A stretch of DNA of 64,000 bases. Source: Kiritimatiellales bacterium (GTDB lineage Bacteria; Verrucomicrobiota; Kiritimatiellia; Kiritimatiellales; Tichowtungiaceae). This document shows positions 4,642 through 56,128 of this stretch, in pieces. Below the pieces are notes generated by a model. It saw nothing but the letters and a program-made list of their open reading frames with translations, had not been told where the DNA came from and made no database searches. Each line of letters begins with the position of its first letter. Position 1 is the first letter of the stretch. The DNA lies in contig JBAXDG010000001.1 of NCBI GenBank assembly GCA_037141075.1, forward strand, positions 1,811-65,810, read 5' to 3'. The position numbers and the translations under genes are program-made.

Positions 4642-5088
4642 CTGAAATATGAAAGATGAAGTATGAAATATGAAAATAGTATTTATTGTCCCTTAGATTT
4701 TTTCACCCAAGACACCATGATGGAAATCAGCTCGTCGCATTCTTTCCACAACTCACCGATTTTACCGCTGTTTACATTGCAACCTTCAGTCAGCAGTTCG
4801 AGCCAGAGCTGTGTTTCGTCTGCTTCCTGAAGGCATTGTTCAAGTTTTGAAATAAATTCCGCCGTGCTTCGTGCCCGGTAAGCCTCTCTGAAATTGGCGG
4901 CAATTGATGTTCCTGAGCGGAGCATCTGTTTGCCGCAAACCTGTACCGAGGCCTCTTTTGAAAGGGCCGCGTATAAATGAATAATTTCTACAGCAAAAGC
5001 CTTTGTCCGTTTCCGGAAGTCATAGTTTTCGCTGTTTTCGTTCACATTCATACCGCTTTCATCTTTCATAGTTCATCATTCATCTTTC
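4642..5088. repeat. Complementary heptamer repeat arms flanking four-helix-bundle gene A
   Basis: 4642-4676 CTGAAAT ATGAAAG ATGAAGT ATGAAAT ATGAAAA; 5056-5088 CTTTCAT CTTTCAT AGTTCAT CATTCAT CTTTC. Confidence 0.85.
4683..5069 (-). CDS. Four helix bundle protein (23S-IVS-protein/Avd-like superfamily), copy A
   Basis: [13 protein letters not shown]...[30 protein letters not shown]...[12 protein letters not shown]. Start uncertain because the repeat arm contains several ATGs. Confidence 0.85.
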
Positions 5089-5093
5089 CGTCC

Positions 5094-6638
5094 CTACTCC
5101 CATTCGATGGTGGAAGGCGGTTTTGACGAAATATCGTAGACGACGCGGTTGACGCCTTTGACTTCGTTGATAATGCGGTTGGAAATGCTGTCGAGCACCT
5201 CGTAAGGCAGTTTGAACCAGTCGGCCGTCATGCCGTCGAGGCTTTGAACGGCGCGCACCGCGACGACGTTTTCGTAGGTGCGGTCGTCGCCCATGACACC
5301 GACGGTCTGGATCGGGAGCAGCACGGCGAAGTACTGCCAGACGTCGAGATGGTTTGGCATTTTCAGAATTTCTTCACGAACACGCAGGTCGGCTAGCTGG
5401 AGCAGATCGACGCGTTCCTGTGTGATATCGCCGAGGATGCGTACGGCGAGGCCGGGGCCGGGGAAGGGCTGGCGATCGACGACGTAACTCGGCAGGCCAA
5501 GCTCGCGGCCGACGGCGCGCACTTCATCTTTGAAGAGTTCGCGGAGCGGTTCAATCAGATCAAACTTCAGATCGGCGGGCAGTCCGCCGACATTGTGATG
5601 ACTCTTGATGGTGGCCGACGGCCCGCCGATCGGCGAAACGCTTTCGATGACGTCGGGATAGAGCGTGCCTTGTGCAAGATATTTCACTTTACCGACTTCG
5701 CGCGCTTTTTCGGCGAAGACATCGATAAAGGTTTTGCCGATGATTTTACGTTTCTTCTCCGGATCGGTGACGCCGGCCAGCGCATCGAGGAAAATGTCCT
5801 GCGCATGCGCCGTATGCAGGTCGATGCCGAAGGCTTTGCCGAAAAGCTCTTCGACTTCTCGTGCTTCGTTATAGCGGAGCAGTCCGTTGTCGACGAAGAC
5901 GCAGTGAAGCTGCGGGCCGATCGCTTTATGGAGCAGGGCGGCCACGACGGAAGAATCCACACCGCCGCTCAGTCCGAGCAGAACGTGATCGCTGCCGACC
6001 TTAGCGCGGATGGCACTAATGTTGTCTTCAATAAATTTGCTCATCTTCCAGTCGCCGGAGCAGCCGCAGACTTTATAGGCAAAATTGCCGAGCATCTGCG
6101 CGCCCTGCGGGGTATGGACGACTTCGGGATGAAACTGCACGCCGTAAATTTTCTTCGCGGTGTTCTGCATGGCGGCGAAAGGACAGTTGTCGGATTCGGC
6201 GACGGCTTCAAATCCGGCGGGAATCGCTTCGACTTTATCGCCGTGGCTCATCCAGACCTGAAGATTTTTATCCAGTCCTTGGAAAAGCGGGCATTCTTTG
6301 GTGACCTGCATCATCGCTTTGCCATATTCGCGTTTGGTGCCGCGGTGCACTTTGCCGCCGAGCGTCTGGGCGGTCATCTGCATGCCGTAGCAGATTCCAA
6401 GGATCGGAATGCCGAGTTCGAAAATCGCGGGATCGCACAGCGGCGAACCTTGATCGGTTACGCTGGCTGGGCCGCCGGAAAGAATAATGCCTTTCGGGGC
6501 ACGCTTGGCGAGGTCGGCGGCTTTGGTGTCAAAGCGGATGATTTCGCAGTACACCTTCTGTTCGCGGATGCGGCGGGCGATCAGCTGCGTCACCTGCGAG
6601 CCGTAATCTAAAATAGCAATCCATTCACTGTGTTTCAT
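5094..6638 (-). CDS. guaA: GMP synthase (glutamine-hydrolysing)
   Basis: [46 protein letters not shown]-terminal KPPSTIEWE. Confidence 0.98.
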
Positions 6639-7738
6639 GATTTCTTCCCTTTTTCCATCAGCGCAATGAACTCCTCAAAAAGATAGTAGGGGTCATGCGG
6701 TCCGGGGCAGGCTTCCGGATGGTACTGCACGCAGAACACCGGCAGTGTTTTATGACGCAGGCCGGCGACGGTGTTGTCGTTGAGATTGATGTGGCTGACT
6801 TCGGCGATTTTCGGATCGACGGTGGCCGGGTCAACGCAGAACCCGTGGTTGTGCGAAGCGATTTCCACTTTGCCGGTACGCAGATCCTGAATCGGCTGGT
6901 TGGCGCCGCGGTGGCCGAATTTCAGTTTATAGGTTGTTGCACCAAACGCCTGGCCGAGCATCTGGTGGCCGAAGCAGATTCCAAAGGTTGGAAGTTTGGA
7001 TTCGATCAGCTCTTTGACGGTTGCGACAATCTGCGGAACGCCAGCCGGATCGCCGGGGCCGTTAGAGAGGAAGAGACCGTCGGGCTTGCAGGCCAGAATT
7101 TCTTTGGCCGAGGCGGTATTGGGAAACACGCGGCATTCGCAACCGAGCTGGTCGAAGATACGAAGCTGGTTGGTTTTGATGCCGCAGTCGATCACGGCAA
7201 CGCGGAAGCGGGCGTTCTTTTTTCCACCTTCCGGATAAACATACGGTTTCTGTGCGCTGACTTCGGTGGAAAGGTCGCGTCCGACGAGCCCGGCGGAGTC
7301 CTTCGCCTTTTTGACGAGGCTCTTGCAGTCGAGATCTTCGGTCGAGATGACGCACTTCATGGCGCCTTTGTCACGGATATGGATGGTGACGGCGCGTGTG
7401 TCGATCTGATCCACGCCGACCACGCCGGCTTTTTCAAGGTATTCGGGCAGGCTCATGGTGGAGCGCCAGTTGCTGGCGATGCGGCTGCACTCGCTCACCA
7501 CCAGCCCTTTGGCAAAAACGGCGCGCGATTCGACGTCTTCAGGATTCACGCCGTAGTTGCCGATGAGCGGGTAGGTCATGGTGACGATCTGTCCATTATA
7601 GGAAGGATCGGTCAGGATTTCCTGATAACCGGTCATCGAGGTGTTGAACACCAGTTCGCCGTAGAATTCGCCGGAGCCGGCGAAGGCCCGTCCGGTGAAA
7701 CAGGTGCCGTCTTCGAGTGCAATGATTGCTTTTTTCAT
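6635..7738 (-). CDS. carA: Carbamoyl-phosphate synthase small subunit
   Basis: Start placed at [11 protein letters not shown] (7738); [41 protein letters not shown]. Confidence 0.97.
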
Positions 7739-8642: not shown

Positions 8643-8664
8643 CACGGACTCCCGGAGTCTGAAG

Positions 8665-8692: not shown

Positions 8693-8709
8693 TGTTTTAA
8701 GGAGTGGGT

Positions 8710-10346: not shown

Positions 10347-11333
10347 ATGAAAACCGTCTGGTTCTGGATATCAACTTTTACGATCGCACTGATAATTTTT
10401 GCCGGGTTGTGCTGGCTCGATACGCGTTCAGGCCCGACGCTTCACAGCGCCGCAGCGATCGGAAATGTTAAGCTCATCAAAAAACAACTGGCTGGCGGAT
10501 CTGACATTAATGCGCTGGACAAAGAAGGCTTTACTCCGCTGATGCGCGCTGTGCTGACCGGACAGCTGGCTGGCATGGAACTGCTGCTGGCTTCGGGCGC
10601 GGATATCAACCGTGCGGGGCAGAATGGCAACACCGCGCTGCACTTCGCCGCGATGCAGAAAGATCCGTCCGCGGCCGAACGGCTGATCGCTGCCGGCGCT
10701 GATTTCCAACTGCGCAACAATGACAAAGCCGCGCCGCTTTGTCTTGCCGTACAGGCCAACAATCCGGTGGTTGGAAAGCTGGTTGCCGCCGGGGCTCTCA
10801 CGGATGACCGCTCGTGCGCCGATGAAAATTGTCTTTTCTGCGCCGCCCGCGTCGGCAACATCACCATGCTTGAGATCCTGATCAAGCGCGGACAGGATTT
10901 GAACCTTCGTTCAAAAACAGGTGCCAGCGCGTTGCACTATGCCGTCACCCAGAAGCACGTGGAAGTCGTCCATCTGCTACTCGACCGGGGCGCGAACGTC
11001 AATCTTCAGGATCGGTACGGCTTAACACCGCTACTCTACGCGGTGCGCGGCAACCAGCTTGAGGTGGTCAAACTGCTGCTCAAGCATGGAGCGAATATGG
11101 AGCTTCCCGACAATCAGGAGCGCACCCCGTTGCTGATGACCGCGCAGCTTGGCTTTGTAGAAATCTTTGAACTACTGGTGCGCAGCGGCGCGAATATTGA
11201 TGCCAAGCTTTCTTCAGGGGAAACGGCCATCGAACTGGCCGGCGCCAATCATCGCGACGGAATTGTGGCCTTTCTGGCCAATTATCGCCGTGAACTTGAG
11301 ACCCGCCGCCTGAACTCTACTGTGCAGTTTTGA
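10347..11333 (+). CDS. Ankyrin-repeat protein with N-terminal membrane anchor
   Basis: Repeated G.TPL..A / ADIN motifs (GFTPLMRA, GNTALHFA, GLTPLLYA) after a hydrophobic N-terminus. Confidence 0.9.
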   Translation: MKTVWFWISTFTIALIIFAGLCWLDTRSGPTLHSAAAIGNVKLIKKQLAGGSDINALDKEGFTPLMRAVLTGQLAGMELLLASGADINRAGQNGNTALHFAAMQKDPSAAERLIAAGADFQLRNNDKAAPLCLAVQANNPVVGKLVAAGALTDDRSCADENCLFCAARVGNITMLEILIKRGQDLNLRSKTGASALHYAVTQKHVEVVHLLLDRGANVNLQDRYGLTPLLYAVRGNQLEVVKLLLKHGANMELPDNQERTPLLMTAQLGFVEIFELLVRSGANIDAKLSSGETAIELAGANHRDGIVAFLANYRRELETRRLNSTVQF

Positions 11334-11395
11334 CCTGTCGTTGCGGGCGAAATGCGTTTGACCTCGTATTTGAAACCCCGCACAATCCCCGCCCA

Positions 11396-12217
11396 ATGAT
11401 ACAGGAAAACACCACCGTAGTTGAACATCACGTCTTTCAGGGCGACTATCGCCTGCTCAGACTTTCTTCTCCCGCCATTGGTCCGCTCGTGCGGCCGGGG
11501 CAGTTTGTCCATCTGCGTGTACCGCGCCTCGCCGACGCCGTTTTGCGGCGGCCTTTCAGCGTTTTTAAAGCCGATGCCGAAGGCCTTTCCATTCTCTACA
11601 AATCCGTTGGTAAAGGCACCGCCGCGATGTGCTCCGTGCGCGAAGGCGAAACCGTTAATCTGATCGGTCCGCTGGGCAACGGGTTCCCGCCGATTCACTC
11701 TGCGAGCACGATGACACCTGTACTTGTTGCAGGCGGCTACGGCAACGCCGCGCTTTATCTGCAGGCGGCCAAACTGCCGGTCAAGGGCGTTGCCTTCTTC
11801 GGCGGGCGAAGTGCGGGGGATGTTCTCTGTGTCGACGAATTCAAAGCGCTCGGCTGGGATGTGCGCATCACCACCGACGACGGCTCGCTCGGACAGAAGG
11901 GGCTCGTCACGGTTGCGCTCGACTCGTGGCTGGCGGAGCAAGATGCAGGGGGCAGGGAGCAGGGAGCAGGGGGACAACGTTTCCAAGGATTGGAAATTTT
12001 CGCCTGTGGTCCCAACGCCATGCTCAAAGCGGTCGGCGATCGCGCTGTTCAAAATGGAATAACCGCCTGGCTTTCCATGGATCGCAACATGGCCTGCGGC
12101 GTCGGTGCCTGCCTCGCCTGCGTCATCAAACGCAAAACCGCTGACGGCTGGGAATGGGTGCGATGCTGCAAGACCGGCCCGGTTTTTAAAGCGCGGGAGA
12201 TTCTCTGGGATGAATAG
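11396..12217 (+). CDS. pyrK: Dihydroorotate dehydrogenase electron transfer subunit
   Basis: PGQFVHL, LRRPFS, GPLGNGF, ACGPNAML, MACGVGACLAC; two genes upstream of pyrD. Confidence 0.93.
   Translation: MIQENTTVVEHHVFQGDYRLLRLSSPAIGPLVRPGQFVHLRVPRLADAVLRRPFSVFKADAEGLSILYKSVGKGTAAMCSVREGETVNLIGPLGNGFPPIHSASTMTPVLVAGGYGNAALYLQAAKLPVKGVAFFGGRSAGDVLCVDEFKALGWDVRITTDDGSLGQKGLVTVALDSWLAEQDAGGREQGAGGQRFQGLEIFACGPNAMLKAVGDRAVQNGITAWLSMDRNMACGVGACLACVIKRKTADGWEWVRCCKTGPVFKAREILWDE
11946..11973 (+). repeat. Heptamer tandem repeat inside pyrK
   Basis: CAGGGGG CAGGGAG CAGGGAG CAGGGGG, translated as AGGREQGAGG; same family as the arms of cassette B. Confidence 0.8.
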
Positions 12218-12667
12218 GCAGGGAGCATGGGGCGTGGAGCTTGGAGAAAACATGGCACAATTTAGATTCCAAAACCTCGAAATATGGCAACGTGCCATTG
12301 AGATCGCCGATCAGCTCTTGAATGTTGCCGATGAGATGGATGTTCGTAAATTTTACCGGTTCTCCGATCAGTTGCGCGGGGCGGCTCTCAGCATTTCAAA
12401 CAATATTTCAGAAGGTGCCGGAGCGGCTTCAAAGAAAGAATTTGCTCAGTTTTTAAATTTTGCCAAACGCTCCTGTTTTGAAAATGCCAACATGCTGATT
12501 CTTTTTGCAAAAAGAGGGCTGATCAGTACAGAGTTAAGAGACCGTCAACTCGCAGAACTCGAAGCGGAGAGTAAAATGATAGAGGCATTTAGAAAAAGCC
12601 TGTTGGGAGGGGTTTCGTGATGGTAATGGTATCTCATGACTCCACGCTCCCGGCTCCCGGCTCCCGG
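12217..12667. repeat. Complementary heptamer repeat arms flanking four-helix-bundle gene B
   Basis: 12220-12246 AGGGAGC ATGGGGC GTGGAGC TTGGAG; 12639-12666 ACTCCAC GCTCCCG GCTCCCG GCTCCCG. Confidence 0.8.
12252..12620 (+). CDS. Four helix bundle protein, copy B
   Basis: FRFQNLEIWQRAI...DQLRGAALSISNNISEGAG..SKKEFAQFLNFAKRSCFE, the IVS-protein-type pattern. Confidence 0.9.
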   Translation: MAQFRFQNLEIWQRAIEIADQLLNVADEMDVRKFYRFSDQLRGAALSISNNISEGAGAASKKEFAQFLNFAKRSCFENANMLILFAKRGLISTELRDRQLAELEAESKMIEAFRKSLLGGVS

Positions 12668-13585
12668 CCGAAGCAGCCAGACATGGCTGTTCGCATCGGC
12701 TCGCTGGAAATGAAGAATCCGGTAACGGTCGCCTCCGGCACGTTCGGCTACGGGCCGGAATACGCCGATCTGGTTGATCTCGACCGCCTCGGCGCGATTA
12801 CCGTCAAAGGCATCAGCACCGAGCCGCATGTTGGCAATTCGATGCCGCGCACGTTCGAAACATTTGCCGGCATGCTCAATGCCATTGGCCTGCCCGGTCC
12901 CGGGGCGCATATGTTCATTAAGAAAAATATACCGTTCTTCGAAAAATATCGCGTGCCGCTCATCGTCAACATCTGGGGAAAAACCGTCGAAGACTACAGC
13001 CGCGTCGCGGAGATTTTCAACGATCAGCCGCGGATCAGCGCGCTCGAAGTGAATGTTTCCTGCCCGAACGTCAAAGAGGGCGGGGCGCTCTACGGAACCG
13101 ATGTGAATCTGTTTCGCTCGGTCGTGGATGCAGTTCGCGCCAAGACGCAGAAGCCGCTGATCATTAAACTCGCGCCGAATGTGGCGGACATCAAACTGTT
13201 CGCCCGCGCCGCCGAAGAATGCGGTGCCGACGCCGTTTCCATCATGAATTCCTATCCGGCCATGGCGATCAATATTGAAACGCGCAAGCCGCAGTTGGCC
13301 AACCGCACCGGCGGACTCTCCGGCCCGGCCATCAAACCCATTGCCGTCAAACTGGTGTGGGAAGCCGCCAAGGCCGTTAAAATTCCAATCATTGGAATGG
13401 GCGGCATAACCAGTCCTGAGGACGCGCTGGAGTTCATCATCGCCGGCGCTTCGGCCGTCGCCGTCGGCACCGCCAACTTCACCGATCCTTCCACCGCGGT
13501 GCGCGTGATTGAAGGAATGGAGAACTGGATGGCGGCAAAAGGGATCGGTTCGGTTGCCGAGCTTAAAGGAACGGTGCAGGCATGA
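12617..13585 (+). CDS. pyrD: Dihydroorotate dehydrogenase (class 1B) catalytic subunit
   Basis: KNPVTVASGTFGYG, LEVNVSCPN, GGLSGPAIKP, IPIIGMGGI. Start uncertain (12617 or 12683). Confidence 0.96.
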   Translation: MMVMVSHDSTLPAPGSRPKQPDMAVRIGSLEMKNPVTVASGTFGYGPEYADLVDLDRLGAITVKGISTEPHVGNSMPRTFETFAGMLNAIGLPGPGAHMFIKKNIPFFEKYRVPLIVNIWGKTVEDYSRVAEIFNDQPRISALEVNVSCPNVKEGGALYGTDVNLFRSVVDAVRAKTQKPLIIKLAPNVADIKLFARAAEECGADAVSIMNSYPAMAINIETRKPQLANRTGGLSGPAIKPIAVKLVWEAAKAVKIPIIGMGGITSPEDALEFIIAGASAVAVGTANFTDPSTAVRVIEGMENWMAAKGIGSVAELKGTVQA

Positions 13586-15489: not shown

Positions 15490-18400
15490 TCATTGGATCA
15501 CTTCTGTCAGCGCACTATACACAGCGGTCAGCAGGCCGTCGACAGAAACCGGTTTTTTCAGGAAGTGATATCCCTTCGACTCGAGAAGAAGCCACCGATC
15601 ATGCTGATTCTGATAACCGCTGCACAGCACCACCGGCAGGCCGGGACTTTCTTTCCGGAGCAGGTCTGCCAGTTCGATGCCATCCTTCCCGGGCATGACG
15701 ATATCGCTGAAGAGCAGGTCGAAGTCGCCTTGCTGCTCTTTGAACAGTTCAAGGGCCTCTTCTGCGCTCGCGGCAACGACGGGTTTATAGCCTGCCGATT
15801 CCAGAATCTGAATGAACATATTGCGCATTCCCGCATCATCTTCGACCAGTAGAATCCGGTCGTTGCGTGTCCGGTCTGTTGGGTTGTCTGTCGCGGGAGC
15901 TTCATAGGCCGGCAGGTATATCTTCAGGGTGGTTCCCTGTCCTTCTTTGCTGTCCACATGAATCCAGCCCTTGTTCTGCTTGACGATGCCGTACACCACC
16001 GAAAGGCCCATGCCGGTTCCTTTGCCGACTGCTTTGGTTGTGAAAAACGGTTCAAACAAATGGTCTTTTACTTCACGGCTCATGCCGCAACCGGTGTCGG
16101 TGGCGGACAGGCAGACAAAAGAACCCGGTCGTGCTTCGGGCATTCCGGTGATGGCTTGCGGCGCGAAGGTGATGTTTTCTGTTGCGATCGTCAGGTGGCC
16201 GCCATCCGGCATGGCGTCGCGGGCGTTGACGGTCAGATTGATGATCAGTTGCGTGATCTGGCCGGGGTCGATATATATTTCATGCAAGGCTGGGTGCGTC
16301 ACGAAGGTTAATGCCGTCTTATTCCCCAGCAGTTGTTGCAACATCGCTTCGATATCCCGAACCACCGTGTTGAGGCCAATCCGTTTCCTGTCCGCAGGTT
16401 GGTTGCGGCTGAAGGTCAGCAGTTGCCGGGTCATTTCCGCCGCGCGCCGGGCGGCTTTCTGGACCTCAAGGGCATTCTCGTGTTCCAGAGTGTCCTTTTT
16501 CAACTGGTTGATAAGGAGTTCGCTGAACCCGAGGATAGCCTGAAGAACATTGTTGAAGTCATGCGCGATGCCGCCGGTGAGCCGACCGATTGCGTCCATC
16601 TTCTGGCTCTGCCGGAATTTCTCCTCCTGAGCCAGCTCCTGAGTGATGTCCCGTTTCACAGCGACATAGCCGGTGATGGTTCCGGACGGATCCCGAACCG
16701 CAGAAATCACGGCCTCCTCCGTGTAGAGTTCGCCGCCTTTCCGTTTATTGACGAAACGACCTTCCCAGGTTTTTCCAGAGGTGATGGTTTTCCAAAGGTT
16801 GGAATAAAAGGCTGCATCGTGATTTTCGCTCTTGAGGATTCGCGGGTTTTTCCCCAACGCTTCTTCGCGCGAATAGCCCGTGATGGTTTCAAAGGCCGGG
16901 TTGACATACTGGATGATTCCGCCGGGACCTGTAATCATGACGGTTTCCGGAGACTGCTCAATGGCGGTGGAAAGGCGCAGCAGTTCGGCTTTGTTCTTTT
17001 TTTCTTCGGTGATATCTGTGGTGTAGCCCGCCAGCAACGTTCTGTCGCCCTGAACAATCGGAAACTTGATCGTGGTATAGCTGCGGCCATTCAACTCCTC
17101 ATTTATTCTCAGCACCGCACCCTTGCTCACCACAGCCCAGTCGTCGGCCATGATCTTCAGGGCCAGTTCCGCCGGGAACAACTCGGCCATGGTCTTGCCC
17201 GCCATCTCTGAACCCGGGATGCCGATCATCTGGTGAAAATTATCGCTGGCTTGCAGCACGCGGCTTTCGGTGGGCGTTACTTCCTTGATATAGGTGTAAA
17301 CGGGCGAGTGATGCATGAACAGCCTGAACAGCTCTGCGCTCTCCCGGAGCGCCTCCTGCATCCGTTTACTTTCGGTGATATCTTCGTAGGCCCCGATCAC
17401 TCCAATGATTTCTCCCTGAATGTTTTTCAGCGGAATTTTGCTGGTCTTCAGCCAGTTGAGGGTTCCATCTGATCGGGTCTGAGGTTCTTCAATATCAAGT
17501 TTCGGTGCGCCCGACTCAATCACGTCACGATCGTCCGCGCGGAATGCTTCGGACTGTTCGTTCGTTGTGACCAGATCAAAATCGGTTTTTCCGACCACTT
17601 CTTCCGGGCTGGCAATTCCGACATCATGAGCAAACGGCAGGTTGCATCCGAGGTAGGTTGAGCTGCGGTCTTTCCAGAAAACACGAACCGGGATGCTATC
17701 AATAACGGTGCGCAGGAACTGTTGCGACTCTTCAAGCTTTTGCTGGGCAATTATGCGTTTGGTGATATCCCATGAAATCCCGAGTGTTCCTGCGAGATTC
17801 CCATTTTCGTCATAGCGGGGGGTTTTAGTGGTTTGATGCCAAACCGTCCCCGACAGCTCTTCGACCTGAACCGGCTGCCCGGTTTGCATCACCCGCTGTT
17901 CGTCCTCGAATTTTTTCCGGGCCAGAGCTTCCGGAAAGAGGTCGAAATCGGTTTTTCCGATCAAGGCTTCCTTTGCCATCCCGCGGTAGATTGCTGTGCT
18001 CTGGTTCACGTAGACGAACCGCCCGTTGGTGTCTTTGAAATAAACATTGGCCGGCAGGGACTCCATAAAAGACAGGAAGAGGTTTTGTTCAAACCGGAGA
18101 CGCTTTTCCGACTCCTTTCGATTGGTGATGTCATGGGCGGAAGTGCAGATATATTCCCTGTTCCCGTATCTTATATAGCTCGCATGAACTTCAACCGGAA
18201 GAAGCCGTCCGTCTTTGGTCTTATGGTGCATTTCAAGTTGCAGCGATTTCTTTTCCTGCAACTCCTGCCAGTGCGAAGGCCAGCGTTCCGCCGGCATATT
18301 CGGGTCAATATCGGGAACAGATAAGCGGAGAAGCTCTTCTTTGTCATAGCCCAGCGTGCGGCAGGCCGCCTCGTTGACATAGACAAACCGTCCTGTTGAG

Positions 18401-22118: not shown

Positions 22119-22869
22119 TATCGAACTGATTTCGATCGGCAGTGAGCTATTGAGCGGACGTACGCTCAACAGCCATGCGCAGACGCTGGGCGCGGCGCTC
22201 ACCGCCATCGGTCTTCGCCTTTCGCGCGACACGACGATTCCCGACGAAATCGAAACCATTCAATTCGCTGTTCGCGAAGCGTTCGAGCGCACCGACATCG
22301 TCGTCGTTAGTGGCGGTCTCGGCCCGACCTCCGACGACATCACGCGCGATGCGCTCGCCGGACTCTTTGGGCGAAAAATCGTCATATCGTCCGCCGCGCT
22401 CGCCGCTCTGCATAAACGGTTCAACGAGCGCGGACGCATCATCAATCCCGCCGCCGAACGTCAGGCTCTTATTCTCGACGGAGCGGAAACACTCATCAAC
22501 TCTGCCGGGGCCGCTCCCGGCGAACGGTTAGGCTTTCCGGGGAACAAAACCCTTTTTATTCTGCCCGGCCCGCCGAATGAATTTGCCGCCGTGCTCAACG
22601 ACCACATTGTTCCGTGGCTCATCAAACAGTTTCCTGATGTTGTCCCGCTCGAACTGCGCGTACTTACCACGCAGGGCATCGGCGAATCCGATATCGTCAC
22701 TCGACTTGAAGAGGCGGGGTTCCAACCCTTGGAAACTTCGATCGGGTTTTATCCAGGGCTTGGAAAAGTCGAAATCCGCCTGACCGCGCCGCGCGAACAG
22801 TTCGCCGCGCTCGAAGCCGTCGAGCGCACCCTGCGGGCAATCCTGCGCGACAAGCTCATTGGGAAATAA
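22108..22869 (+). CDS. CinA-type molybdopterin-binding-domain protein (no C-terminal PncC domain)
   Basis: IGSELLSGRTLNSH, SGGLGPTSDDIT, LPGPPNE; 253 aa, ending before any PncC domain. Confidence 0.85.
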   Translation: MKTDIELISIGSELLSGRTLNSHAQTLGAALTAIGLRLSRDTTIPDEIETIQFAVREAFERTDIVVVSGGLGPTSDDITRDALAGLFGRKIVISSAALAALHKRFNERGRIINPAAERQALILDGAETLINSAGAAPGERLGFPGNKTLFILPGPPNEFAAVLNDHIVPWLIKQFPDVVPLELRVLTTQGIGESDIVTRLEEAGFQPLETSIGFYPGLGKVEIRLTAPREQFAALEAVERTLRAILRDKLIGK

Positions 22870-22933: not shown

Positions 22934-23335
22934 ATGATAAGAAGCTGGAAAGAGATGCCGAAATATTTCAGAGGTCTGGTGGTCGCCCTGTTGCTGGTGG
23001 TGATTGTGCAGTATGTACTGATGACGGGTCTGGTTCGTCCGGTTGGCGGGGTTTTTCTGGCCTTGCAGATTTTTTGCTATCTGCTGCTGGCAGCGGCCTT
23101 GTTGCGCGGCTTCATCGAACGCTCTCGGCTGGCCTGGCTGGTCGCTCAGATCATGCTGACCGCTTTGTTTGATTTTTCTCTGCTTTTCGCCGCCATCAGC
23201 GCGGTGTTTTCTCTGAAAACCGACAGTCTCTGGATTATGGTTGGTTCCGCTGTGGCAACTACTGTCTTAAATGGACTGTTGATGGTCCTCTTATTCGTGA
23301 TCCCGGTTCGCAACTACTTTCGCCCCTTGGACTGA
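22934..23335 (+). CDS. Small integral membrane protein
   Basis: Four hydrophobic segments; RBS-like GGAG upstream. Confidence 0.6.
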   Translation: MIRSWKEMPKYFRGLVVALLLVVIVQYVLMTGLVRPVGGVFLALQIFCYLLLAAALLRGFIERSRLAWLVAQIMLTALFDFSLLFAAISAVFSLKTDSLWIMVGSAVATTVLNGLLMVLLFVIPVRNYFRPLD

Positions 23336-23420: not shown

Positions 23421-24239
23421 ATGCAAGCGATCAGTCAGGCACTTCTTGATGAGGCGGTTTTGGCGGTGAAAAAAGCCTGGCCGCAGGCGAAACCGCGGCT
23501 CGGCATTATTCTCGGTTCCGGCTGGGGCGGGGCGGTCGCAGATTTCACCGTTAAGGCGGCTCTCCCTTACGACAAAGTTCCAAACCTTGGAAGAACCGGT
23601 GCGCCGGGCCATGCCGGAACGTTGCTTCATGCTGAACTTGGCGGAACGGAACTTTTTATTTTCCAGGGTCGGCGTCACGTCTATGAGGGCGAGGGCTGGG
23701 CGCCGGTCGTTCTGCCGGTCTGGCTGTTGAAACAGTTTGGCGCGCAGGCCGTGCTGCTCACCAATGCCTCCGGCGGCATCCGCGACGATCTGCGCCCCGG
23801 CACGCTGATGGCGATTGAAGACCACATCAATATGCTCGGTGGCAATCCGCTCGCCGGTTCGCACAATCCAGCGTTCGGCGACCGCTTTCCCGATCAGACC
23901 GCGGTTTATGATCACGACCTGCGTCAGGCGCTGATGGCGGCGGGCGCGGATGCTTCCGGCGTTTATCTCGCGACCGACGGGCCGACTTTTGAAACGCCGG
24001 CCGAGATTCGCGCCTTCCGCGCGCTCGGCGTCGATGCGGTTGGTATGTCCACTGTGCCGGAAGCGATTTTTGCCAACGCACTTGGGCTGCGGGTTGCCGG
24101 GCTTTCCTGCATCTGCAACTGGGCGGCTGGACTTGGAGATGACAAACTGTCAGCCGAAGATGTTTTATGTACAGCAAAAGAAGCCATGCCGCGCATGCGG
24201 TCAGTCATAAGGAGCTTTGTCGAAAAATGCGGATATTAA
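23421..24239 (+). CDS. punA: Purine nucleoside phosphorylase (PNP/XapA type)
   Basis: ILGSGWG, GHAG, QGRRHVYEG, TNASGG, DHIN, GPTFETPAE, VGMSTVPE. Confidence 0.93.
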   Translation: MQAISQALLDEAVLAVKKAWPQAKPRLGIILGSGWGGAVADFTVKAALPYDKVPNLGRTGAPGHAGTLLHAELGGTELFIFQGRRHVYEGEGWAPVVLPVWLLKQFGAQAVLLTNASGGIRDDLRPGTLMAIEDHINMLGGNPLAGSHNPAFGDRFPDQTAVYDHDLRQALMAAGADASGVYLATDGPTFETPAEIRAFRALGVDAVGMSTVPEAIFANALGLRVAGLSCICNWAAGLGDDKLSAEDVLCTAKEAMPRMRSVIRSFVEKCGY

Positions 24240-34981: not shown

Positions 34982-34989
34982 GCCGAATT

Positions 34990-35080: not shown

Positions 35081-35099
35081 TGCCAACGGAGTTGGCGAA

Positions 35100-36314
35100 A
35101 TGATCCGTTTTTCATACAGAGCAATCACCGCTGATGGAACTCCCCACAACGGCTCGCTGGAGGCGCCCGGCAAAGCACAGGCGGCTCTGTCGCTTCAGAA
35201 AAGCGGATTAATTGTTCTCAGCCTGTCGGCCGCCGGCGAACAGGGCTCTTCCGGATCGGCATCCTTCGCGCTGACCGGCCGCGTCAACGCGCAGCATCTG
35301 GTGGACTTTGCCATCGAAACATCGGCGTTGCTTGATGCGAAGGTTCCTCTGGAACAGGTGCTCAAAACACAGACCGACCTCTGTACGCACAAACGGTTCA
35401 AAGAAATGCTCACCTCAATCTGGCAGGATGTGAATGGCGGGGCTTCTTTTGCCGACGCACTGGCGCGGCACCCGAAAACATTCGAACGCTTTTTTGTCAA
35501 TATGGTGCGAGGCGGCGAGGCATCCGGCTCGCTGGAGCTGATCATGCGGCGTATTGCGGAGTTACTGGAACGCCGCATGAAACTGCGCACGAAAGTGGTT
35601 GGCGCGTTGATTTATCCGTCGCTGCTCGTGGTCATGGGCGTCGTGGTGATCAGTGTCATGATGATTTTTGTGGTTCCGAAAATGACGTCGCTGTTCGGGG
35701 ATTCCGGGCGGTTGCTGCCGGCGTCCACGCGGGCGGTGATCGCGATGAGTAATTTTACCCGTTCCAGCTGGTGGCTTTTCCCGCTGGCGTGCGCCGGCCT
35801 GTTTTCCGTTTATAAAATGAAGACCCGCTCCGAAGAAGGGCAGGCCGCTTTCGGGCGCGCCATCTTGAAAATTCCACTGCTTGGAAACCTGATCGCGCAG
35901 GCGGAGACCAGCCGCTTCTGCCGTATGATGAGTTCGCTGCTCGACGGACAGGTTCCGATTCTTTCCGCTCTCTCGATCACCGGCGGCACGCTGGGCAACG
36001 CGGCGCTGCGTAAGCTGATGAAAGAAGTCTATTCCCGTGTGCAGGGCGGCCAGCCGATGGGGCCGCTTCTTCAGGCCAGTCCGGAATTTCCGGAGCTGGC
36101 TTCGCGCATGATCACCATGGGCGAGGAGTCCGGCGAATTGCAGACGATGCTCAACAAAGTGGCCGATCGCTACGAAGAAAAAGTGGCCGCCACCACCGAG
36201 CGGCTGGTCGGCGTGATCGAGCCGGTTTTTATTATCTTAATGGGGATCGTCGTCGGGTTCATTGTCATCAGCATGATGCAGGGCATTATGGCGATGAGTA
36301 CGTCGGCGGGATAA
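35100..36314 (+). CDS. gspF: Type II secretion inner-membrane platform protein
   Basis: GASFADAL..HPKTF..FFVNMVRGGEASGSL, ALIYP, GEESGEL..ML, EPVFIILMG. Confidence 0.95.
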   Translation: MIRFSYRAITADGTPHNGSLEAPGKAQAALSLQKSGLIVLSLSAAGEQGSSGSASFALTGRVNAQHLVDFAIETSALLDAKVPLEQVLKTQTDLCTHKRFKEMLTSIWQDVNGGASFADALARHPKTFERFFVNMVRGGEASGSLELIMRRIAELLERRMKLRTKVVGALIYPSLLVVMGVVVISVMMIFVVPKMTSLFGDSGRLLPASTRAVIAMSNFTRSSWWLFPLACAGLFSVYKMKTRSEEGQAAFGRAILKIPLLGNLIAQAETSRFCRMMSSLLDGQVPILSALSITGGTLGNAALRKLMKEVYSRVQGGQPMGPLLQASPEFPELASRMITMGEESGELQTMLNKVADRYEEKVAATTERLVGVIEPVFIILMGIVVGFIVISMMQGIMAMSTSAG

Positions 36315-36844
36315 GGGAACGGAAGAGTGGAAGGTTGGAAGAATGGTGATGGAATACACCCAAAGAAAAAATATTAACCGGGGATATCGGAAGCTGTGTG
36401 TTTGGCAGGATGCCATCGAATACTACGCTTTGACCTGCGGGATATTTATGAAGTTTCCTTACGAATTAAAGCGCATCGCCTCCAACCATATTGCATCGGT
36501 CGATTCCATTCATCGGAATATCGCCGAAGGATTTTGCCGCCGGTCGCTCAAGGAATATCTGGTGTTCTTGAACTATGCGCTGGCTTCTGCAGGAGAATCC
36601 GTTTCCGGGCTTCACGCTTATATGCATTCCGGCCAAATTGCGACCGGACAGTTCGAGGAGATGGATCAACTCGCCTACAAGATAGAGAACGGTTTGAAGA
36701 AGCTGATCGAAAGTCTGCAACTCAAACAACAGGACAAGGATTGGGACGACAGTTTTATTATCAAAGAGAGCAATGTTCAATATCTCACAGAACGGGAGAG
36801 GGCGGATGATTCTTCCATCCTTCCTCCCTTCCAAACTTCCAACC
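36315..36844. repeat. Complementary octamer repeat arms flanking four-helix-bundle gene C
   Basis: 36321-36344 GGAAGAGT GGAAGGTT GGAAGAAT; 36809-36840 ATTCTTCC ATCCTTCC TCCCTTCC AAACTTCC. Confidence 0.85.
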
Positions 36845-36873
36845 CAAAAGCAGAGGAAATGAACCATGAATAA
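36343..36873 (+). CDS. Four helix bundle protein, copy C (C-terminal extension)
   Basis: RGYRKLCVWQDAI...SIHRNIAEGFCRRSLKEYLVFLNYALASAGE; the 3' end reads through the right repeat arm. Confidence 0.88.
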   Translation: MVMEYTQRKNINRGYRKLCVWQDAIEYYALTCGIFMKFPYELKRIASNHIASVDSIHRNIAEGFCRRSLKEYLVFLNYALASAGESVSGLHAYMHSGQIATGQFEEMDQLAYKIENGLKKLIESLQLKQQDKDWDDSFIIKESNVQYLTERERADDSSILPPFQTSNPKAEEMNHE

Positions 36874-37315
36874 ACGAAACAAACGTAATAACTGCAACCG
36901 TAACGCCGGCTTTACACTGGTTGAACTGCTGGTGGTGCTGGTGATTCTAATGGTGATCGGAACAATTGCCGTGCAGAACTTCGGCGGTGAAGAAGACAAG
37001 GCCAAGGTGAAAGCCACGAAAGCGTCCTTTACGTCGCTCGAAAATGCGCTCGAACGCTTCAAGCTGGATGTCGGCCGTTATCCGACGGCGGAAGAAGGTT
37101 TGGCGGCGCTGTACGACGCGCCCGACGGAGTCGAAGGCTGGGCCGGTAAATATTTGACGAAGCGCCGGTCGCTGAAAGACGCATGGGAAAACGATTATGT
37201 TTATGTGATTCCCGGGCCGGACAACGAACCGTTTGAAATTAGGTCCTACGGCGCGGACAAGGTGGAAGGCGGCGAAAAATTCAACGCCGATCTCTCCAAC
37301 CTTGACGAAAAGTAG
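36866..37315 (+). CDS. gspG: Major pseudopilin
   Basis: AG|FTLVELLVV, ALERFKLDVGRYP..EEGL.AL, W.G.YL, DAWENDYVY..PG, SYGADKVEGG. Confidence 0.95.
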   Translation: MNKRNKRNNCNRNAGFTLVELLVVLVILMVIGTIAVQNFGGEEDKAKVKATKASFTSLENALERFKLDVGRYPTAEEGLAALYDAPDGVEGWAGKYLTKRRSLKDAWENDYVYVIPGPDNEPFEIRSYGADKVEGGEKFNADLSNLDEK

Positions 37316-37335
37316 GAAATTGGAAGGTTGGAAGA

Positions 37336-38061
37336 ATGGAAGGTCGGAAGCCCAGTTTGGAGTGCGGCGGGAAACGAAGTGCCACGCCGCTTTTTCATCC
37401 GCAAAGAGCGGTGTCGTCCGTTGGTTGCCACCGCACTCCAAAGCGTTGCAATGCCGCGTTCACATTGATCGAATTGCTGGTGGTGCTGGCAATTATCTCG
37501 ATCATGGTCGGCGTGGCAGTCGCCACGCTCTCCGGAGCCGGTACGCCGAAGCAGCAGCTGCGCCGCGAAGCCCGCGACTTAACCAAACTGCTTAAAGAGG
37601 CGCGGCAGGCCGCGATGGAGCGCAAACTGAAAGTGGATGTTTATGTCGAGCCGTCTGTTCGTGCGGTTTGCGCGGTTGAATCCGGGTATGCACGCAAGCT
37701 GCTGGCGGACAACGCGGAGTTCTTTACGGATGAAACCAGTCTGAAGGAACTGGTGCCGGAAACAAACCGGTTCTTCCGGGTGACAACCTTTCCGGAAGAG
37801 ATCGCCGTGGAAGCCTTTGCGCTAAGTGATATTGAGCCGGAAAAAACCGGGGAGGAACCGCTGTTTGAATCGGTGCCGAAAGAAGTTCCAATGACTGGAA
37901 CCGAAACCCCCGAAGTCAGCCGGGCGGTTTTCAGTTTTACACATCTGGGCGGCGCCTCCGGCGGTGGAGTCAGCGTGGTGCGCAACGGACTGCGCGTTGA
38001 TATCGCCTGCGATCTGCTTACCGGACTGCCGGAAATTGTTCAGCGGAAGGCGGCGCAGTGA
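37336..38061 (+). CDS. Minor pseudopilin (GspH-like) with repeat-derived leader
   Basis: AA|FTLIELLVVLAII prepilin motif; position after gspG. Confidence 0.8.
   Translation: MEGRKPSLECGGKRSATPLFHPQRAVSSVGCHRTPKRCNAAFTLIELLVVLAIISIMVGVAVATLSGAGTPKQQLRREARDLTKLLKEARQAAMERKLKVDVYVEPSVRAVCAVESGYARKLLADNAEFFTDETSLKELVPETNRFFRVTTFPEEIAVEAFALSDIEPEKTGEEPLFESVPKEVPMTGTETPEVSRAVFSFTHLGGASGGGVSVVRNGLRVDIACDLLTGLPEIVQRKAAQ
37356..37442. repeat. 87-bp REP-like palindrome, copy 1 (in frame in a prepilin leader)
   Basis: TTTGGAGTGCGGCGGGAAACGAAGTGCCACGCCGCTTT...AAGAGCGGTGTCG...TTGCCACCGCACTCCAAA; nested stems. Confidence 0.85.
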
Positions 38062-38549
38062 AACGCTTGCGGAAAATTTTGGAGTGCGGCGGGAAACGAA
38101 GTGCCACGCCGCTTTTATATTCGCGAAGAGCGGTGTCGCCTATCGGTTGCCACCGCACTCCAGAACGTTGCAGCGCGGGCTTCTCCCTGCTGGAGGTTCT
38201 GGTGGCGCTGGCGATTTTTGCGATTGCCGCCGGCGGGGTTCTCGTGGCGCTGGGACATCATTTAAAAAATGTGTCGTTTCTGCAGGACCACTCGCGGGCG
38301 GTGCGGATTGCTTCCCGAGAAATGAATGCAATGCGACGGATGCCTACTGCTCTGGAAGAAGTAGCGGAAGGTTCTGAAGATCGCTTTTCCTGGATGTCTT
38401 TGGCCAGCACCGAAGGACTTGAGGAGTGGCCGGGGCTGACCTCGTCGACGGGAACGCCCGTGCGGCTTTCGGTGACGGTTCAGTGGAGTGACAGTGCGGG
38501 CGGGCCGCCGGCGGGAAAGGTTCGGCTGGACGGCTTTGAGGTTTTTTAG
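38058..38549 (+). CDS. Minor pseudopilin (GspI-like) with repeat-derived leader
   Basis: AG|FSLLEVLVALAIFAI; GTG start overlapping the upstream stop. Confidence 0.8.
   Translation: MKRLRKILECGGKRSATPLLYSRRAVSPIGCHRTPERCSAGFSLLEVLVALAIFAIAAGGVLVALGHHLKNVSFLQDHSRAVRIASREMNAMRRMPTALEEVAEGSEDRFSWMSLASTEGLEEWPGLTSSTGTPVRLSVTVQWSDSAGGPPAGKVRLDGFEVF
38078..38164. repeat. 87-bp REP-like palindrome, copy 2 (in frame in a prepilin leader)
   Basis: TTTGGAGTGCGGCGGGAAACGAAGTGCCACGCCGCTTT...AAGAGCGGTGTCG...TTGCCACCGCACTCCAGA; same length as copy 1. Confidence 0.85.
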
Positions 38550-44269: not shown

Positions 44270-44404
44270 AATAAACCTCCTTAAGAAGGCACCGACTATA
44301 ATAGATTTTCCAATATTTGGAAGTCTCCCCTTACGGCAATTTTTTCGTGTATTTGAGCGGAGGGCTGGTTTATGCTCGCCGCCTCAATTTTCAGGACGTT
44401 TAGA

Positions 44405-52259: not shown

Positions 52260-52261
52260 AA

Positions 52262-53845: not shown

Positions 53846-53850
53846 TTTGT

Positions 53851-54327: not shown

Positions 54328-54335
54328 GAGAGCTC

Positions 54336-55646
54336 ATGGAAACTGATATCCATCCCGAGTGTATGCCTGATTATCTGGACCCCCACGAACTGCGGGCGCT
54401 GCAGCTACAGCGGTTGAAAGCCACTGTTCAGCGCTGTTACAATAACGTGGCGCTTTTCCGTCAGCGCATGGATGAACGCGGCATGAAGCCCGCCGACATC
54501 CGCACGCTGGATGATGTACAAAAACTTCCATTTACTCAGAAAACCGATTTGCGTGATACGTATCCTTACGGACTGTTTGCCGTGCCGATGAAAGACGTCG
54601 TCCGCCTGCACGCCTCCAGCGGAACAACCGGCAAGCCGATTGTAGTCGGCTACACCCAGGACGATCTGGACGTCTGGAGCAGTGTCATGCTCCGTTCTTT
54701 TGTCGCCACCGGCATGCACGCCGGAGACGTCCTCCAGAACGCCTACGGCTACGGACTGTTCACCGGCGGCCTCGGCGCGCATTACGGCGCGGAGCGGCTC
54801 GGTGCAACCGTCATTCCGATTTCCGGCGGCAACACGGAACGCCAGATTCTGGTGATGAAGGATTTCGGCGTCACCGCCATCTGCTGTACGCCGAGCTATT
54901 TTATTCACCTGATCGAAAAAGTGAACGCGAGCGGTATTTCCTTCAGAGATCTTGGCGTAAAAATCGGCGTGTTCGGCGCGGAGCCGTGGACGGAAGCCAT
55001 GCGCACCTACATTCAGCGCGAATCCGGCATTAAGGCTTTTGACATTTACGGACTGACGGAAATTATTGGCCCTGGTGTCGGCATCGAATGCTGTGAGCAG
55101 GCCGGTCTTCATATTTTTGAAGACCACTTCCTGATCGAAATTGTCGATCCGGAAACCGATGAAGTCCTGCCCGACGGTGCGGAAGGCGAGCTGATCATCA
55201 CGACGCTCACCAAGCAGGCGTTTCCGATGATCCGCTACCGCACTCACGATATCACTTCGATCAATCCGGAGCGTTGCGCCTGCGGCCGCACCATCCGCCG
55301 CATCAACCGCATCCGCTCACGCAGCGACGACATGATGATCATTCGCGGCGTCAACGTCTTCCCGTCGCAGATCGAAGCCGCGCTGCTGTCGGTCGAGGAA
55401 ACTGTGCCGCACTATCAGATTCTGCTCACCCGCAAGGGCGGGCTCGACCAGATCGAAGTGCAGGTTGAAGTCACGAAAGAAATGTTTGGCGACCGCATCA
55501 GCGAACTTGAGGCCACGCAAGCACGGATTGCTCAGGCGATCGACCATATAACCGGCCTGCGCGTTCCGGTCCGTCTTGTTGAGCCGCACACCATTGCGCG
55601 CAGCGAAGGGAAAGCCAAACGAGTCATCGATAATCGGAACCAATAG
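54336..55646 (+). CDS. paaK: Phenylacetate-CoA ligase
   Basis: VRLHASSGTTGKP, YGYGLFTGGLG, GAEPW, RSDDMMIIRGVNVFPSQIE, GKAKRVID. Confidence 0.95.
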   Translation: METDIHPECMPDYLDPHELRALQLQRLKATVQRCYNNVALFRQRMDERGMKPADIRTLDDVQKLPFTQKTDLRDTYPYGLFAVPMKDVVRLHASSGTTGKPIVVGYTQDDLDVWSSVMLRSFVATGMHAGDVLQNAYGYGLFTGGLGAHYGAERLGATVIPISGGNTERQILVMKDFGVTAICCTPSYFIHLIEKVNASGISFRDLGVKIGVFGAEPWTEAMRTYIQRESGIKAFDIYGLTEIIGPGVGIECCEQAGLHIFEDHFLIEIVDPETDEVLPDGAEGELIITTLTKQAFPMIRYRTHDITSINPERCACGRTIRRINRIRSRSDDMMIIRGVNVFPSQIEAALLSVEETVPHYQILLTRKGGLDQIEVQVEVTKEMFGDRISELEATQARIAQAIDHITGLRVPVRLVEPHTIARSEGKAKRVIDNRNQ

Positions 55647-55647
55647 T

Positions 55648-56128
55648 TCGATATCGAAAATCCTAATCTCTAAACACTAAATCCTAAACCAATTTAACGT
55701 CAGGAACCCGATGAGCCAGCCATACGATCTGGAGGAGAGAACCTTGGAGTTTGCTAAGGCAGTCAGAGCGTTTGTGCGCAGGGTGATGAAAGATATTCCG
55801 AACATCGAAGACTGCAAGCAGGTTGTCCGTTCGTCCGGATCTGTGGCGGCTAACTACATTGAAGCCAATGAGTCGTTGAGCAAAAAAGATTTTTTGATGC
55901 GCGCAAAAATTTGCCGGAAGGAAGCCAAGGAATCGCGTCTTTGGTTGCGTCTGATTCTGGCAGAAGGCCTTGAGGAGGAGCGGATTCGACTGGAACAGGA
56001 AGCCAAAGAGCTTACTCATATTTTCGGTGCGATTGTCACGAAATCGGGAGACTGAATTTAAATATTAAATTTTGATCATTTGTCATTTGAATTTGTTTAG
56101 AATTTAGAAATTAGTGGTTAGATATTCG
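55648..56128. repeat. Complementary heptamer repeat arms flanking four-helix-bundle gene D
   Basis: 55660-55687 ATCCTAA TCTCTAA ACACTAA ATCCTAA; 56097-56124 TTAGAAT TTAGAAA TTAGTGG TTAGATA. Confidence 0.8.
55711..56055 (+). CDS. Four helix bundle protein, copy D
   Basis: YDLEERTLEFAK...KQVVRSSGSVAANYIEANESLSKKDF..RAKICRKEAKESRLWL. Confidence 0.92.
   Translation: MSQPYDLEERTLEFAKAVRAFVRRVMKDIPNIEDCKQVVRSSGSVAANYIEANESLSKKDFLMRAKICRKEAKESRLWLRLILAEGLEEERIRLEQEAKELTHIFGAIVTKSGD

Follow-up and report, generated by a model that had tools for sequence, protein, structure and literature searches.

Why do four operons within one stretch of a bacterial genome each carry, between two of their genes, a small gene of the same divergent family enclosed by inverted arrays of short repeats? 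The stretch in question comprises 64,000 nucleotides of a Kiritimatiellales bacterium (assembly GCA_037141075.1, contig JBAXDG010000001.1, positions 1,811 to 65,810 of the forward strand) and is called the window here. The four genes belong to the four-helix-bundle family PF05635/TIGR02436, the intervening-sequence proteins (IVPs) named after insertions in 23S rRNA. A first-pass annotation, made from the sequence alone, had described the genes and their arms, and had proposed that the arms pair in the mRNA and loop out the open reading frame (ORF). The reading that we favor, with a probability of roughly 0.6, is that these are mobile hairpin cassettes similar to the rRNA intervening sequences (IVSs), which ride in operon transcripts as small selfish or semi-domesticated elements.

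Four armed IVP genes in operon spacers

A hidden Markov model (HMM) search detected four IVP genes in the window, with every profile match above its curated cut-off (33.8 bits for PF05635 and 24 bits for TIGR02436). For the four cassettes, numbered c1 to c4, the scores were 67.0, 87.5, 53.1 and 39.8 bits with PF05635 and 83, 86, 60 and 62 bits with TIGR02436 (the latter with E-values of 1.4e-23 for c1 and 1.4e-24 for c2). Pairwise identity among the four proteins is 18-33%, which agrees with the mutual divergence noted in the first-pass annotation; their alignment is too divergent to support a pattern scan.

The placement of all four genes between co-oriented neighbors was also confirmed. The c1 gene (4683-5069, minus strand, 128 aa) lies between guaA (5094-6638) and carB (1415-4633). 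The other three are on the plus strand: c2 (12252-12620, 122 aa) between pyrK (11330-12217) and pyrD (probable start 12683), c3 (36343-36873, 176 aa) between gspF (35100-36314) and gspG (36866-37315), and c4 (55711-56055, 114 aa) between the gene for a paaK-like ligase (54336-55646) and that for an ACT protein (56149-56577). In c3, the IVP domain covers residues 16-128, and the C-terminal tail (the last ~48 residues) is translated through the cassette's own 3' arm.

Structural comparison supports the family assignment. The c1 protein matches the solved BT_0352 protein (PDB 2RLD, deposited with five chains) with E=1e-19. The AlphaFold model of the c2 protein (pLDDT 84.6) has four helices, and its TM-scores are 0.82-0.87 to 2GSC, 0.76-0.86 to 2RLD and 0.73-0.82 to 4DWL, the Avd protein of diversity-generating retroelements (DGRs). 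The relationship to Avd that had been claimed is therefore borne out, together with family membership, by the profiles and by the c2 model.

Each of the four genes is bracketed by imperfect inverted arms of 24-39 nt, which are 72-88% complementary and consist of tandem 7-8-nt units. The units are those given in the first pass: ATGAAAG (more generally ATGAAnn) in c1, GCAGGGA in c2, GGAAGNNT (GGAAGnnT, period 8) in c3 and CTAAANC in c4. The description of the 5' arm as purine-rich needs correction for c4, where the arm is rich in A, C and T.

The c1 5' arm (5050-5088, minus strand, ATGAAnn heptads, GAAAGATGAATGATGAACTATGAAAGATGAAAG) is 39 nt long and 82% complementary to the 3' arm (4644-4682, minus strand, TTTCATATTTCATACTTCATCTTTCATATTTC), with which it pairs in the minimum free energy (MFE) fold of the whole cassette. 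In c2, the 5' arm (12208-12253, plus strand, heptads GCAGGGA, GCATGGG and GCGTGGA) comes directly after the pyrK stop codon, and the 3' arm (CTCCACGCTCCCGGCTCCCGGCTCCCGG, 12626-12678, plus strand) pairs terminally in the MFE fold; the best-aligned pair (12208-12246 and 12640-12678) spans 39 nt with 72% complementarity. An inverted-repeat scan located the c3 arms on the plus strand at 36321-36346 (8-nt units GGAAGAGT, GGAAGGTT and GGAAGAAT) and 36809-36844 (ATTCTTCCATCCTTCCTCCCTTCCAAACTTCC), where the best-aligned pair (36321-36346 and 36815-36840) has 26 nt and 81% complementarity. The same scan identified the c4 5' arm (55663-55697, plus strand, heptads CTAATCT, CTAAACA, CTAAATC and CTAAACC); its 3' partner (TTGAATTTGTTTAGAATTTAGAAATTAGTGGTTAG, 56087-56126, plus strand) again pairs terminally in the MFE fold, and the best-aligned pair (55663-55697 and 56087-56121) has 35 nt and 77% complementarity.

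Local alignment of the arms gave scores of 44, 25, 33 and 30 for c1 to c4. For 1,523 equally spaced control pairs from the same window, the mean was 13.8 (standard deviation 2.4), the 99th percentile 21 and the maximum 30. We used this score instead of RNAduplex energies of the 85-nt flanks, which did not discriminate in this GC-rich genome.

Two ORFs near the cassettes call for comment. The longest pyrD ORF begins with a GTG at 12617 and would translate the c2 3' arm; the ATG at 12683 (MAVRIGSLEMKNPV...) is the likely true start. A 133-aa ORF at 22934-23335, in another spacer of pyr-like genes, was considered as the second cassette and rejected, as its product is hydrophobic, probably a membrane protein, and has no Pfam or NCBIfam match; the true pyrK/pyrD cassette lies at 12.2-12.7 kb.

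Arms beside IVP genes across genomes and turnover at one spacer

Arms are a general feature of IVP genes. We scored two independent sets of IVP loci, on contigs from one genome per species, and counted a locus as armed when the arm score was at least 24. Set 1 (c1-like) covers Verrucomicrobiota, Planctomycetota, Chloroflexota, Acidobacteriota, Geobacteraceae and cyanobacteria, and set 2 (2RLD-like) covers Bacteroidota, Oscillospiraceae, cyanobacteria and others. Armed loci numbered 59 of 74 in set 1 and 68 of 75 in set 2, versus 2 of 388 and 3 of 396 shifted controls in the same loci. Taken together, 127 of 149 IVP loci (80-91% per set) from at least 10 phyla are armed, versus 0.5-0.8% of the 784 controls, so that the enrichment of arms beside this gene family, first suspected from the window, holds across genomes.

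The arms are also similar in their design. A period of 7 fits the 5' arm best in 54/59 armed cassettes of set 1 and 63/66 of set 2 (117/125 in total), and 80/125 have 3' arms of 4-5 units. The 5' arm ends a median of 7 nt ahead of the IVP ATG, is closed by stop codons in every reading frame in 36/59 and 33/66 cassettes (69/125 in total), and is purine-rich in 98% (set 1) and 89% (set 2). Because the arms are mutual reverse complements, either strand of the hairpin reads purine-first, and this polarity does not reflect gene orientation.

IVP genes follow the direction of their hosts. They are co-oriented with both neighbors in 42 of 62 loci in set 1 and in 62 of 70 in set 2 (104 of 132), and opposed to both in 4 and 2 loci, respectively (6 in total). 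The median gap between the ORF and the neighboring gene is 40-65 nt and mostly occupied by arms, leaving no room for a promoter; the sense strands of c1 and c4 contain no promoter-like or terminator-like site. A single fetched locus is linked to rRNA, an armed IVP gene (L228, 2504-2845) about 0.8 kb upstream of the 16S rRNA gene in a Ruthturnera-like metagenome-assembled genome (MAG).

The guaA/carB spacer, which holds c1 in the window, exists in five forms among relatives: empty, filled by an ORF-less hairpin or repeat, with a c1-type cassette, with a second IVP type, or with a gene of the GxxExxY family. Empty spacers of 10-33 nt are found in L008, L013, L019, L021, L022, L025 and L027, and ORF-less hairpins or repeat blocks of 128-173 nt in L010, L014, L024, L026 and L032. 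The second IVP cassette (51-60% identical, with TGAAACC arms) is present in L005, L007, L016 and L017, and the GxxExxY cassette in L004, L011, L012 and L015. IVP identity fails to track the identity of the flanking genes: relative to the window, L005 is 95% identical in guaA and 95-96% in carB, yet 60% in the IVP, and L085 is 85% identical in guaA, 98% in carB and 94% in the IVP. Three alleles of the spacer coexist in one lake metagenome, namely the full form (depth 43), an arms-only form with 36 nt replacing the ORF (depth 52) and an empty form with 7 nt between carB and guaA (depth 17). For c4, a probable empty allele was detected. The cassettes are thus not fixed in syntenic relatives, as the guaA/carB spacer is polymorphic both across relatives and within one metagenome.

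Two of the ORF-less guaA/carB inserts (L014, 3167-3323; L010, 8105-8233) retain the 3' end of a GxxExxY cassette (...GCGCCTTTGCGTTGAGG) or arms of that type, and look like remnants after cargo loss. Matches of about 2,100 nt to guaA were considered as insertions inside this gene and rejected, as they represent an upstream glutamine amidotransferase (GATase) paralog.

The genomic surroundings of c1-like IVPs are diverse, with 32 distinct contexts in 52 loci. An identical copy of the c1 protein is encoded on GCA_964384695.1; the nearest relatives of the window guaA are in Pontiellaceae MAGs. Of 80 c1-like loci, 24 are at guaA/carB, some with a guaA that is only 57% identical, and therefore the cassette is also old at this site.

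A second cargo family, which the first-pass annotation had not noticed, shares this design. In four relatives, a 125-aa GxxExxY/PDDEXK_3 gene (TIGR04256, E=3e-43) takes the place of the IVP gene at guaA/carB. Among metagenomic GxxExxY loci, 51/74 are armed versus 1/240 controls, and 39/54 have the gene co-oriented with both neighbors. The arms are built of CGCAAAG, CACAAAG, CACAGAG or CGCAGAG units that recur about every 8-10 nt, in either polarity, and some of the genes have a whole hairpin on each side. Since GxxExxY genes use their own unit type, arm type follows the cargo and not the site. PDDEXK_3 has no known function (PMC3424549), and a PDB sequence search with GxxExxY gave no match. 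PADLOC and PHROGs gave no matches for IVP or GxxExxY, two scans of viral contigs returned no close IVP relatives, and no Rfam family matched within the window.

Where dS was measurable, IVP dN/dS (the ratio of nonsynonymous to synonymous substitution rates) was 0.02-0.15, indicating purifying selection. By this measure of sequence evolution, the IVP protein is shown to be made and under selection. In one close relative, the c1 ortholog (L006, 4948-5325) has a premature TAA and has lost its last ~21 residues, which reflects either cargo decay or a sequencing error.

Gene-less copies, overlooked in the first pass, outnumber the genes. An exact search for four TGAAGGA units, blind to genes, returned 124 arrays. 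A complementary partner within 150 nt was present for 45 of them, which are ORF-less hairpins; 5 enclosed gene-sized loops (150-800 nt), 3 of which hold an IVP gene, and 2 enclosed loops of more than 800 nt. Solitary arrays numbered 50-67, and 5 arrays were too near a contig end to be scored. IVP genes are nearly always armed but most hairpins are gene-less, which is the ratio expected of an autonomous element with miniature derivatives.

The window itself contains gene-less pieces of this kind. An ORF-less hairpin with c1-type heptads (34982-35083, plus strand) separates gspE and gspF; it has 35-nt arms with 80% complementarity and a 32-nt loop. Another one, between argS and a DNA-alkylation-repair gene (59856-59991), has arms of the CACAGAG type, which elsewhere flanks GxxExxY genes. 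Behind gspG, a third GGAAG-type arm (37326-37350, plus strand, 25 nt) is 84% complementary to the c3 3' arm and could serve as its alternative partner. Finally, a solo array of four c2-type heptads is found in frame inside pyrK (11947-11974, plus strand). It lies in a 16-residue insertion (EQDAGGREQGAGGQRFQ; 11935-11999) relative to the PDB PyrK 5KSW_B and is followed by a TTCCAAGGATTGGAA palindrome. As the insertion is encoded by c2-type heptads and the palindrome, a solo arm is therefore tolerated in frame inside a gene.

Other repeats lie nearby. The gsp operon has a repeat element in four consecutive spacers, from gspE through the second pseudopilin gene, among them a hairpin repeat of ~87 nt (TTTGGAGTGCGGCGGGAAACGAAGTGCCACGCCGCTTTT ... 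CCACCGCACTCCAAA) in two copies (37356-37442 and 38077-38165), each immediately upstream of the prepilin-type N-terminus of a pseudopilin gene. The ORF-less hairpin between gspE and gspF is enclosed by a 21-nt inverted repeat with 86% complementarity, of which one copy lies inside the gspE end (34706-34726) and the other inside the gspF start (35182-35202); this repeat accounts for the top control score in the arm test and may be due to chance. The 15-nt palindrome TTCCAA-N3-TTGGAA occurs window-wide in 26 copies with at most one mismatch, versus 0.21 expected, mostly in coding regions (for example at 2650-2664, 6979-6993, 11981-11995, 13383-13397, 16790-16804, 22720-22734, 23578-23592 and 44308-44322). 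Four tandem copies fill the guaA/carB spacer of L026, and two are in the hairpin loop of L032. It looks like an iterated palindrome of the HIP1 (highly iterated palindrome 1) kind, or a binding or uptake site.

Predicted pairing of the arms and competing readings

A cassette, as the data show it, is a promoterless gene for ~120 aa (an IVP or, elsewhere, a GxxExxY protein of nuclease fold) that lies between inverted arrays; each array has about 3-5 short units, nearly always heptads, which share a conserved core of ~5 nt. It sits in sense orientation in the spacer of two co-transcribed host genes. According to the reading that we favor, it is transcribed within the operon mRNA (co-transcription was shown only in a Bacteroides relative). 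In the transcript, folding predictions suggest that the arms would form a periodically interrupted helix of ~30 bp, with the cargo ORF looped out. Such a helix would keep the upstream stop codon near the downstream ribosome-binding site and hide the start of the cargo itself. The IVP-bearing IVSs of 23S rRNA are accommodated in this manner and are cut by RNase III, for which the helix in the mRNA may likewise be a substrate. More speculatively, homology to Avd suggests that a pentameric IVP probably binds its own arms at their 4-5 repeated units. The Avd barrel is itself a pentamer, "similar to S23 ribosomal proteins", in which all five protomers contact an RNA stem-loop and flipped-out bases occupy the crevices between protomers (bioRxiv 10.1101/2023.10.23.563531).

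At the DNA level, whole cassettes, arms and cargo together, are gained, lost and swapped at one spacer, and leave or derive from abundant ORF-less hairpins, like an autonomous element with derivatives that resemble miniature inverted-repeat transposable elements (MITEs). No target-site duplication was found, as the longest shared word outside the arms averaged 3.1 versus 3.1 in controls (set 1) and 3.4 versus 3.4 (set 2). The lack of duplications, the structure-forming ends and the nuclease fold of the alternative cargo point to homing, recombination or hairpin-directed movement, and not to DDE transposition.

The RNA data concern pairing and co-transcription. In whole-cassette MFE folds, the arms pair in four out of four cassettes, with terminal helices of 26, 30, 12 and 35 pairs and z-scores of -6.5, -2.4, -1.5 and -2.7 for c1 to c4. 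The earlier proposal that the arms pair in the mRNA is thus supported in part, by the predicted folds, which close all four cassettes; neither processing or skipping nor a signal specific for the sense RNA was seen. Contigs of 4.5-5.5 kb from Bacteroides culture RNA-seq are continuous across araB, the IVP gene and araA, and therefore this cassette is co-transcribed. The same runs contain AATTGAC arms at other loci too, one with a 39-nt loop. For the organism of the window, a single low-depth RNA contig (4590-4761) extends from the c1 3' end across the 3' arm into carB.

Several observations weigh against the favored reading. The Bacteroides contigs are uninterrupted across the arms, and no skipping joint was seen at this locus, although assembled contigs show continuity and not ends. 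Arm mismatches are of the G·U type in 35 and of the A·C type in 30 cases, without a G·U excess, and the sense and antisense hairpins do not differ in stability (-33.0 versus -32.4 kcal/mol, p=0.14). It is hence possible that pairing plays its part in the DNA, or that the arms look complementary as a by-product of the conserved core that both contain. Of the 155 IVP loci fetched in the two sets, none adjoins a conserved 23S motif, and no mobility enzyme was identified. In addition, 24 genomes share the guaA/carB cassette through old, vertical inheritance, a pattern as compatible with a domesticated function as with selfishness.

The arm sequences themselves appear to be constrained. Mismatches are concentrated in particular heptad phases (0.65 versus 0.57 expected, p=5e-5), and orthologous cassettes retain the 5-nt core (TGAAAC) although dS exceeds 1. 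Together, these observations speak for a sequence-level constraint on the units and not on complementarity alone. Judged from this conservation, the core, which the first-pass annotation had not noted, points to sequence recognition rather than mere tolerance of slippage.

A purely DNA-level element is an unlikely alternative, though the best of those considered. Its ends would be foldback or MITE-like, or would be hairpin or cruciform targets of an enzyme acting in trans (a Y1/RAYT transposase, where RAYT stands for REP-associated tyrosine transposase, or the GxxExxY nuclease); the gene would be a passenger or mobility factor, and pairing in the mRNA irrelevant. Such an element would account for the missing G·U and sense-strand bias, for arms-only and empty alleles next to the full allele, and for ORF-less hairpins being about ten times commoner than gene-bearing ones. 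A RAYT-like Y1 transposase gene is in fact present in the window (188-1192, plus strand, beside carB, with an ortholog in L001), with 60 bits for the IS200-like Pfam family Y1_Tnp and 56 bits for its best NCBIfam match, REP_Tyr_transpos, where the cut-off is 80, and insertion sequence (IS) elements of Geobacter are found at fixed distances from similar paired repeats (PMC2700814). However, cargo that is co-oriented with the operon in 104 versus 6 loci is not predicted by a DNA-only mechanism. The lack of target-site duplications also speaks against it, arms that differ between cassettes of one genome are awkward for a single sequence-specific transposase, and the IVP family is without a known catalytic motif.

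Retention for the benefit of the host is a further alternative, which we regard as quite improbable. As a regulatory device, the units would bind a nucleoid or regulatory protein, or the encoded protein would act as a local regulator or RNA chaperone of its operon. Aklujkar et al. indeed took similar paired repeats for binding sites of integration host factor (IHF) or HU (PMC2700814), and a heptad core conserved across orthologs with saturated synonymous sites, the dN/dS of 0.02-0.15 and the long residence at guaA/carB in 24 genomes all fit a host function. But the operons that host cassettes have no function in common (they serve nucleotide synthesis, type II secretion and arabinose use, or encode phenylacetate-type ligases), in close relatives the same spacer is without the cassette or has another cargo, premature stops occur (L006), and the 52 c1-like loci represent 32 contexts. 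A coincidence, in which heptanucleotide repeats similar to the short tandemly repeated repetitive (STRR) sequences build up by replication slippage in spacers where small genes merely lie, is effectively refuted by complementary arrays on both flanks in 80-91% of loci versus <1% of controls. Arm type following cargo type and the swapping of whole cassettes at one site also speak against it. In its favor, solitary unpartnered heptad arrays are common (50-67/124), and in many bacteria no long simple repeat is more frequent than the heptamer (PMC4679880).

Relation to known systems and significance

The closest known counterparts of the operon cassettes are the 23S rRNA IVSs of Leptospira and Coxiella burnetii. 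The Coxiella IVS has 428 nt, a 28-bp terminal stem that is cut by RNase III mid-stem, and an ORF of the IVP family; where the element came from and what the ORF does are unsettled, and a role in mobility was proposed in 1993 (PMC4990558). IVP ORFs are also found in rRNA insertions of bacteria of the candidate phyla radiation (CPR; bioRxiv 10.1101/2024.02.27.582315). Both kinds of element have the same protein family within terminal inverted repeats that form a long stem, have no promoter, are embedded in a host RNA, with which the operon cassettes too are probably transcribed, and are sporadic among relatives, with suspected horizontal transfer. Unlike IVSs, the window cassettes lie between protein-coding genes in operon mRNA and not in a 23S helix. 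Their arms are periodic heptad arrays. Moreover, the IVP of operon cassettes is under strong purifying selection, whereas the Coxiella S23p is apparently not made. The cassettes are best filed outside the rRNA IVS class, as elements that work like its members but have, besides, a further cargo family and a surrounding population of empty, MITE-like hairpins. The rRNA case, in turn, looks like one instance of a widespread hairpin cassette that is gained and lost.

Paired repeats in Geobacter metallireducens resemble the ORF-less form found in the window at 34982-35083 and 59856-59991. For this species, Aklujkar et al. (2009) listed 53 pairs of arrays, made of tandem octa-, nona- or heptanucleotides and placed on opposite strands ~100 nt apart, and interpreted them as global regulator binding sites for IHF/HU (PMC2700814). 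They lie between co-oriented genes such as moaA/mosC and proB/proA; unlike here, the pairs were connected neither with IVP or GxxExxY genes nor with gain and loss.

Three further systems share single features with the cassettes. REP (repetitive extragenic palindrome) sequences and BIMEs (bacterial interspersed mosaic elements), REPIN-RAYT systems (REP doublets forming hairpins) and MITEs are likewise multi-copy intergenic palindromes inside operons, co-transcribed and far outnumbering gene-bearing copies, and the window contains a RAYT-like gene; in contrast, the arms of the cassettes are internally periodic and differ within one genome, the cargo is in the loop, and there is neither a target-site duplication nor a DDE transposase. 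The heptad arrays may also resemble the STRR heptamers of cyanobacteria. Integron cassettes are promoterless single genes as well, in sense behind a host promoter, with imperfect inverted repeats (attC) possibly recognized as structure. Here, however, the ORF has an arm on either side and not a single attC, the cassettes are dispersed one by one among housekeeping operons and not in an attI array, and no integrase is adjacent. DGRs share the homologous fold of Avd, whose pentamer holds an RNA stem-loop through each of its five protomers (bioRxiv 10.1101/2023.10.23.563531), but no reverse transcriptase and no template or variable repeat was found among the immediate neighbors of the four IVP genes. 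In the searchable literature, which excludes subscription papers, we found no paper linking IVP or GxxExxY genes with such arms.

A tentative extension of our reading, possible but on balance doubtful, is that IVP and GxxExxY proteins are trans-acting factors of an unrecognized superfamily of hairpin-bounded mobile cassettes, which, together with plentiful ORF-less derivatives, would have spread into operon spacers and occasionally into rRNA helices across bacteria. The IVP pentamer would then read the periodically interrupted helix of its own heptad arms one unit per protomer, much as Avd holds its stem-loop, and the complex would be an intermediate for processing, maintenance or movement.

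The origin and function of rRNA IVSs and their conserved ORF have been unsettled for ~30 years. Should rRNA IVSs prove to be special cases of a cassette that resides mostly in operon spacers, these questions become testable in cultured bacteria, with BT_0352 (2RLD) of the Bacteroides arabinose operon as a model of solved structure. Two large families of unknown function would gain a candidate ligand, namely their own repeat units, and the paired repeats of Geobacter, so far regarded as regulator sites, may be elements of this class. For genome annotation, the arms matter because they are read into neighboring ORFs, as in the GTG start of pyrD, the c3 tail and the in-frame array of pyrK. More broadly, wherever such long, interrupted helices separate cistrons, which may be the case in many phyla, they could influence how operons are expressed and how well genomes assemble.

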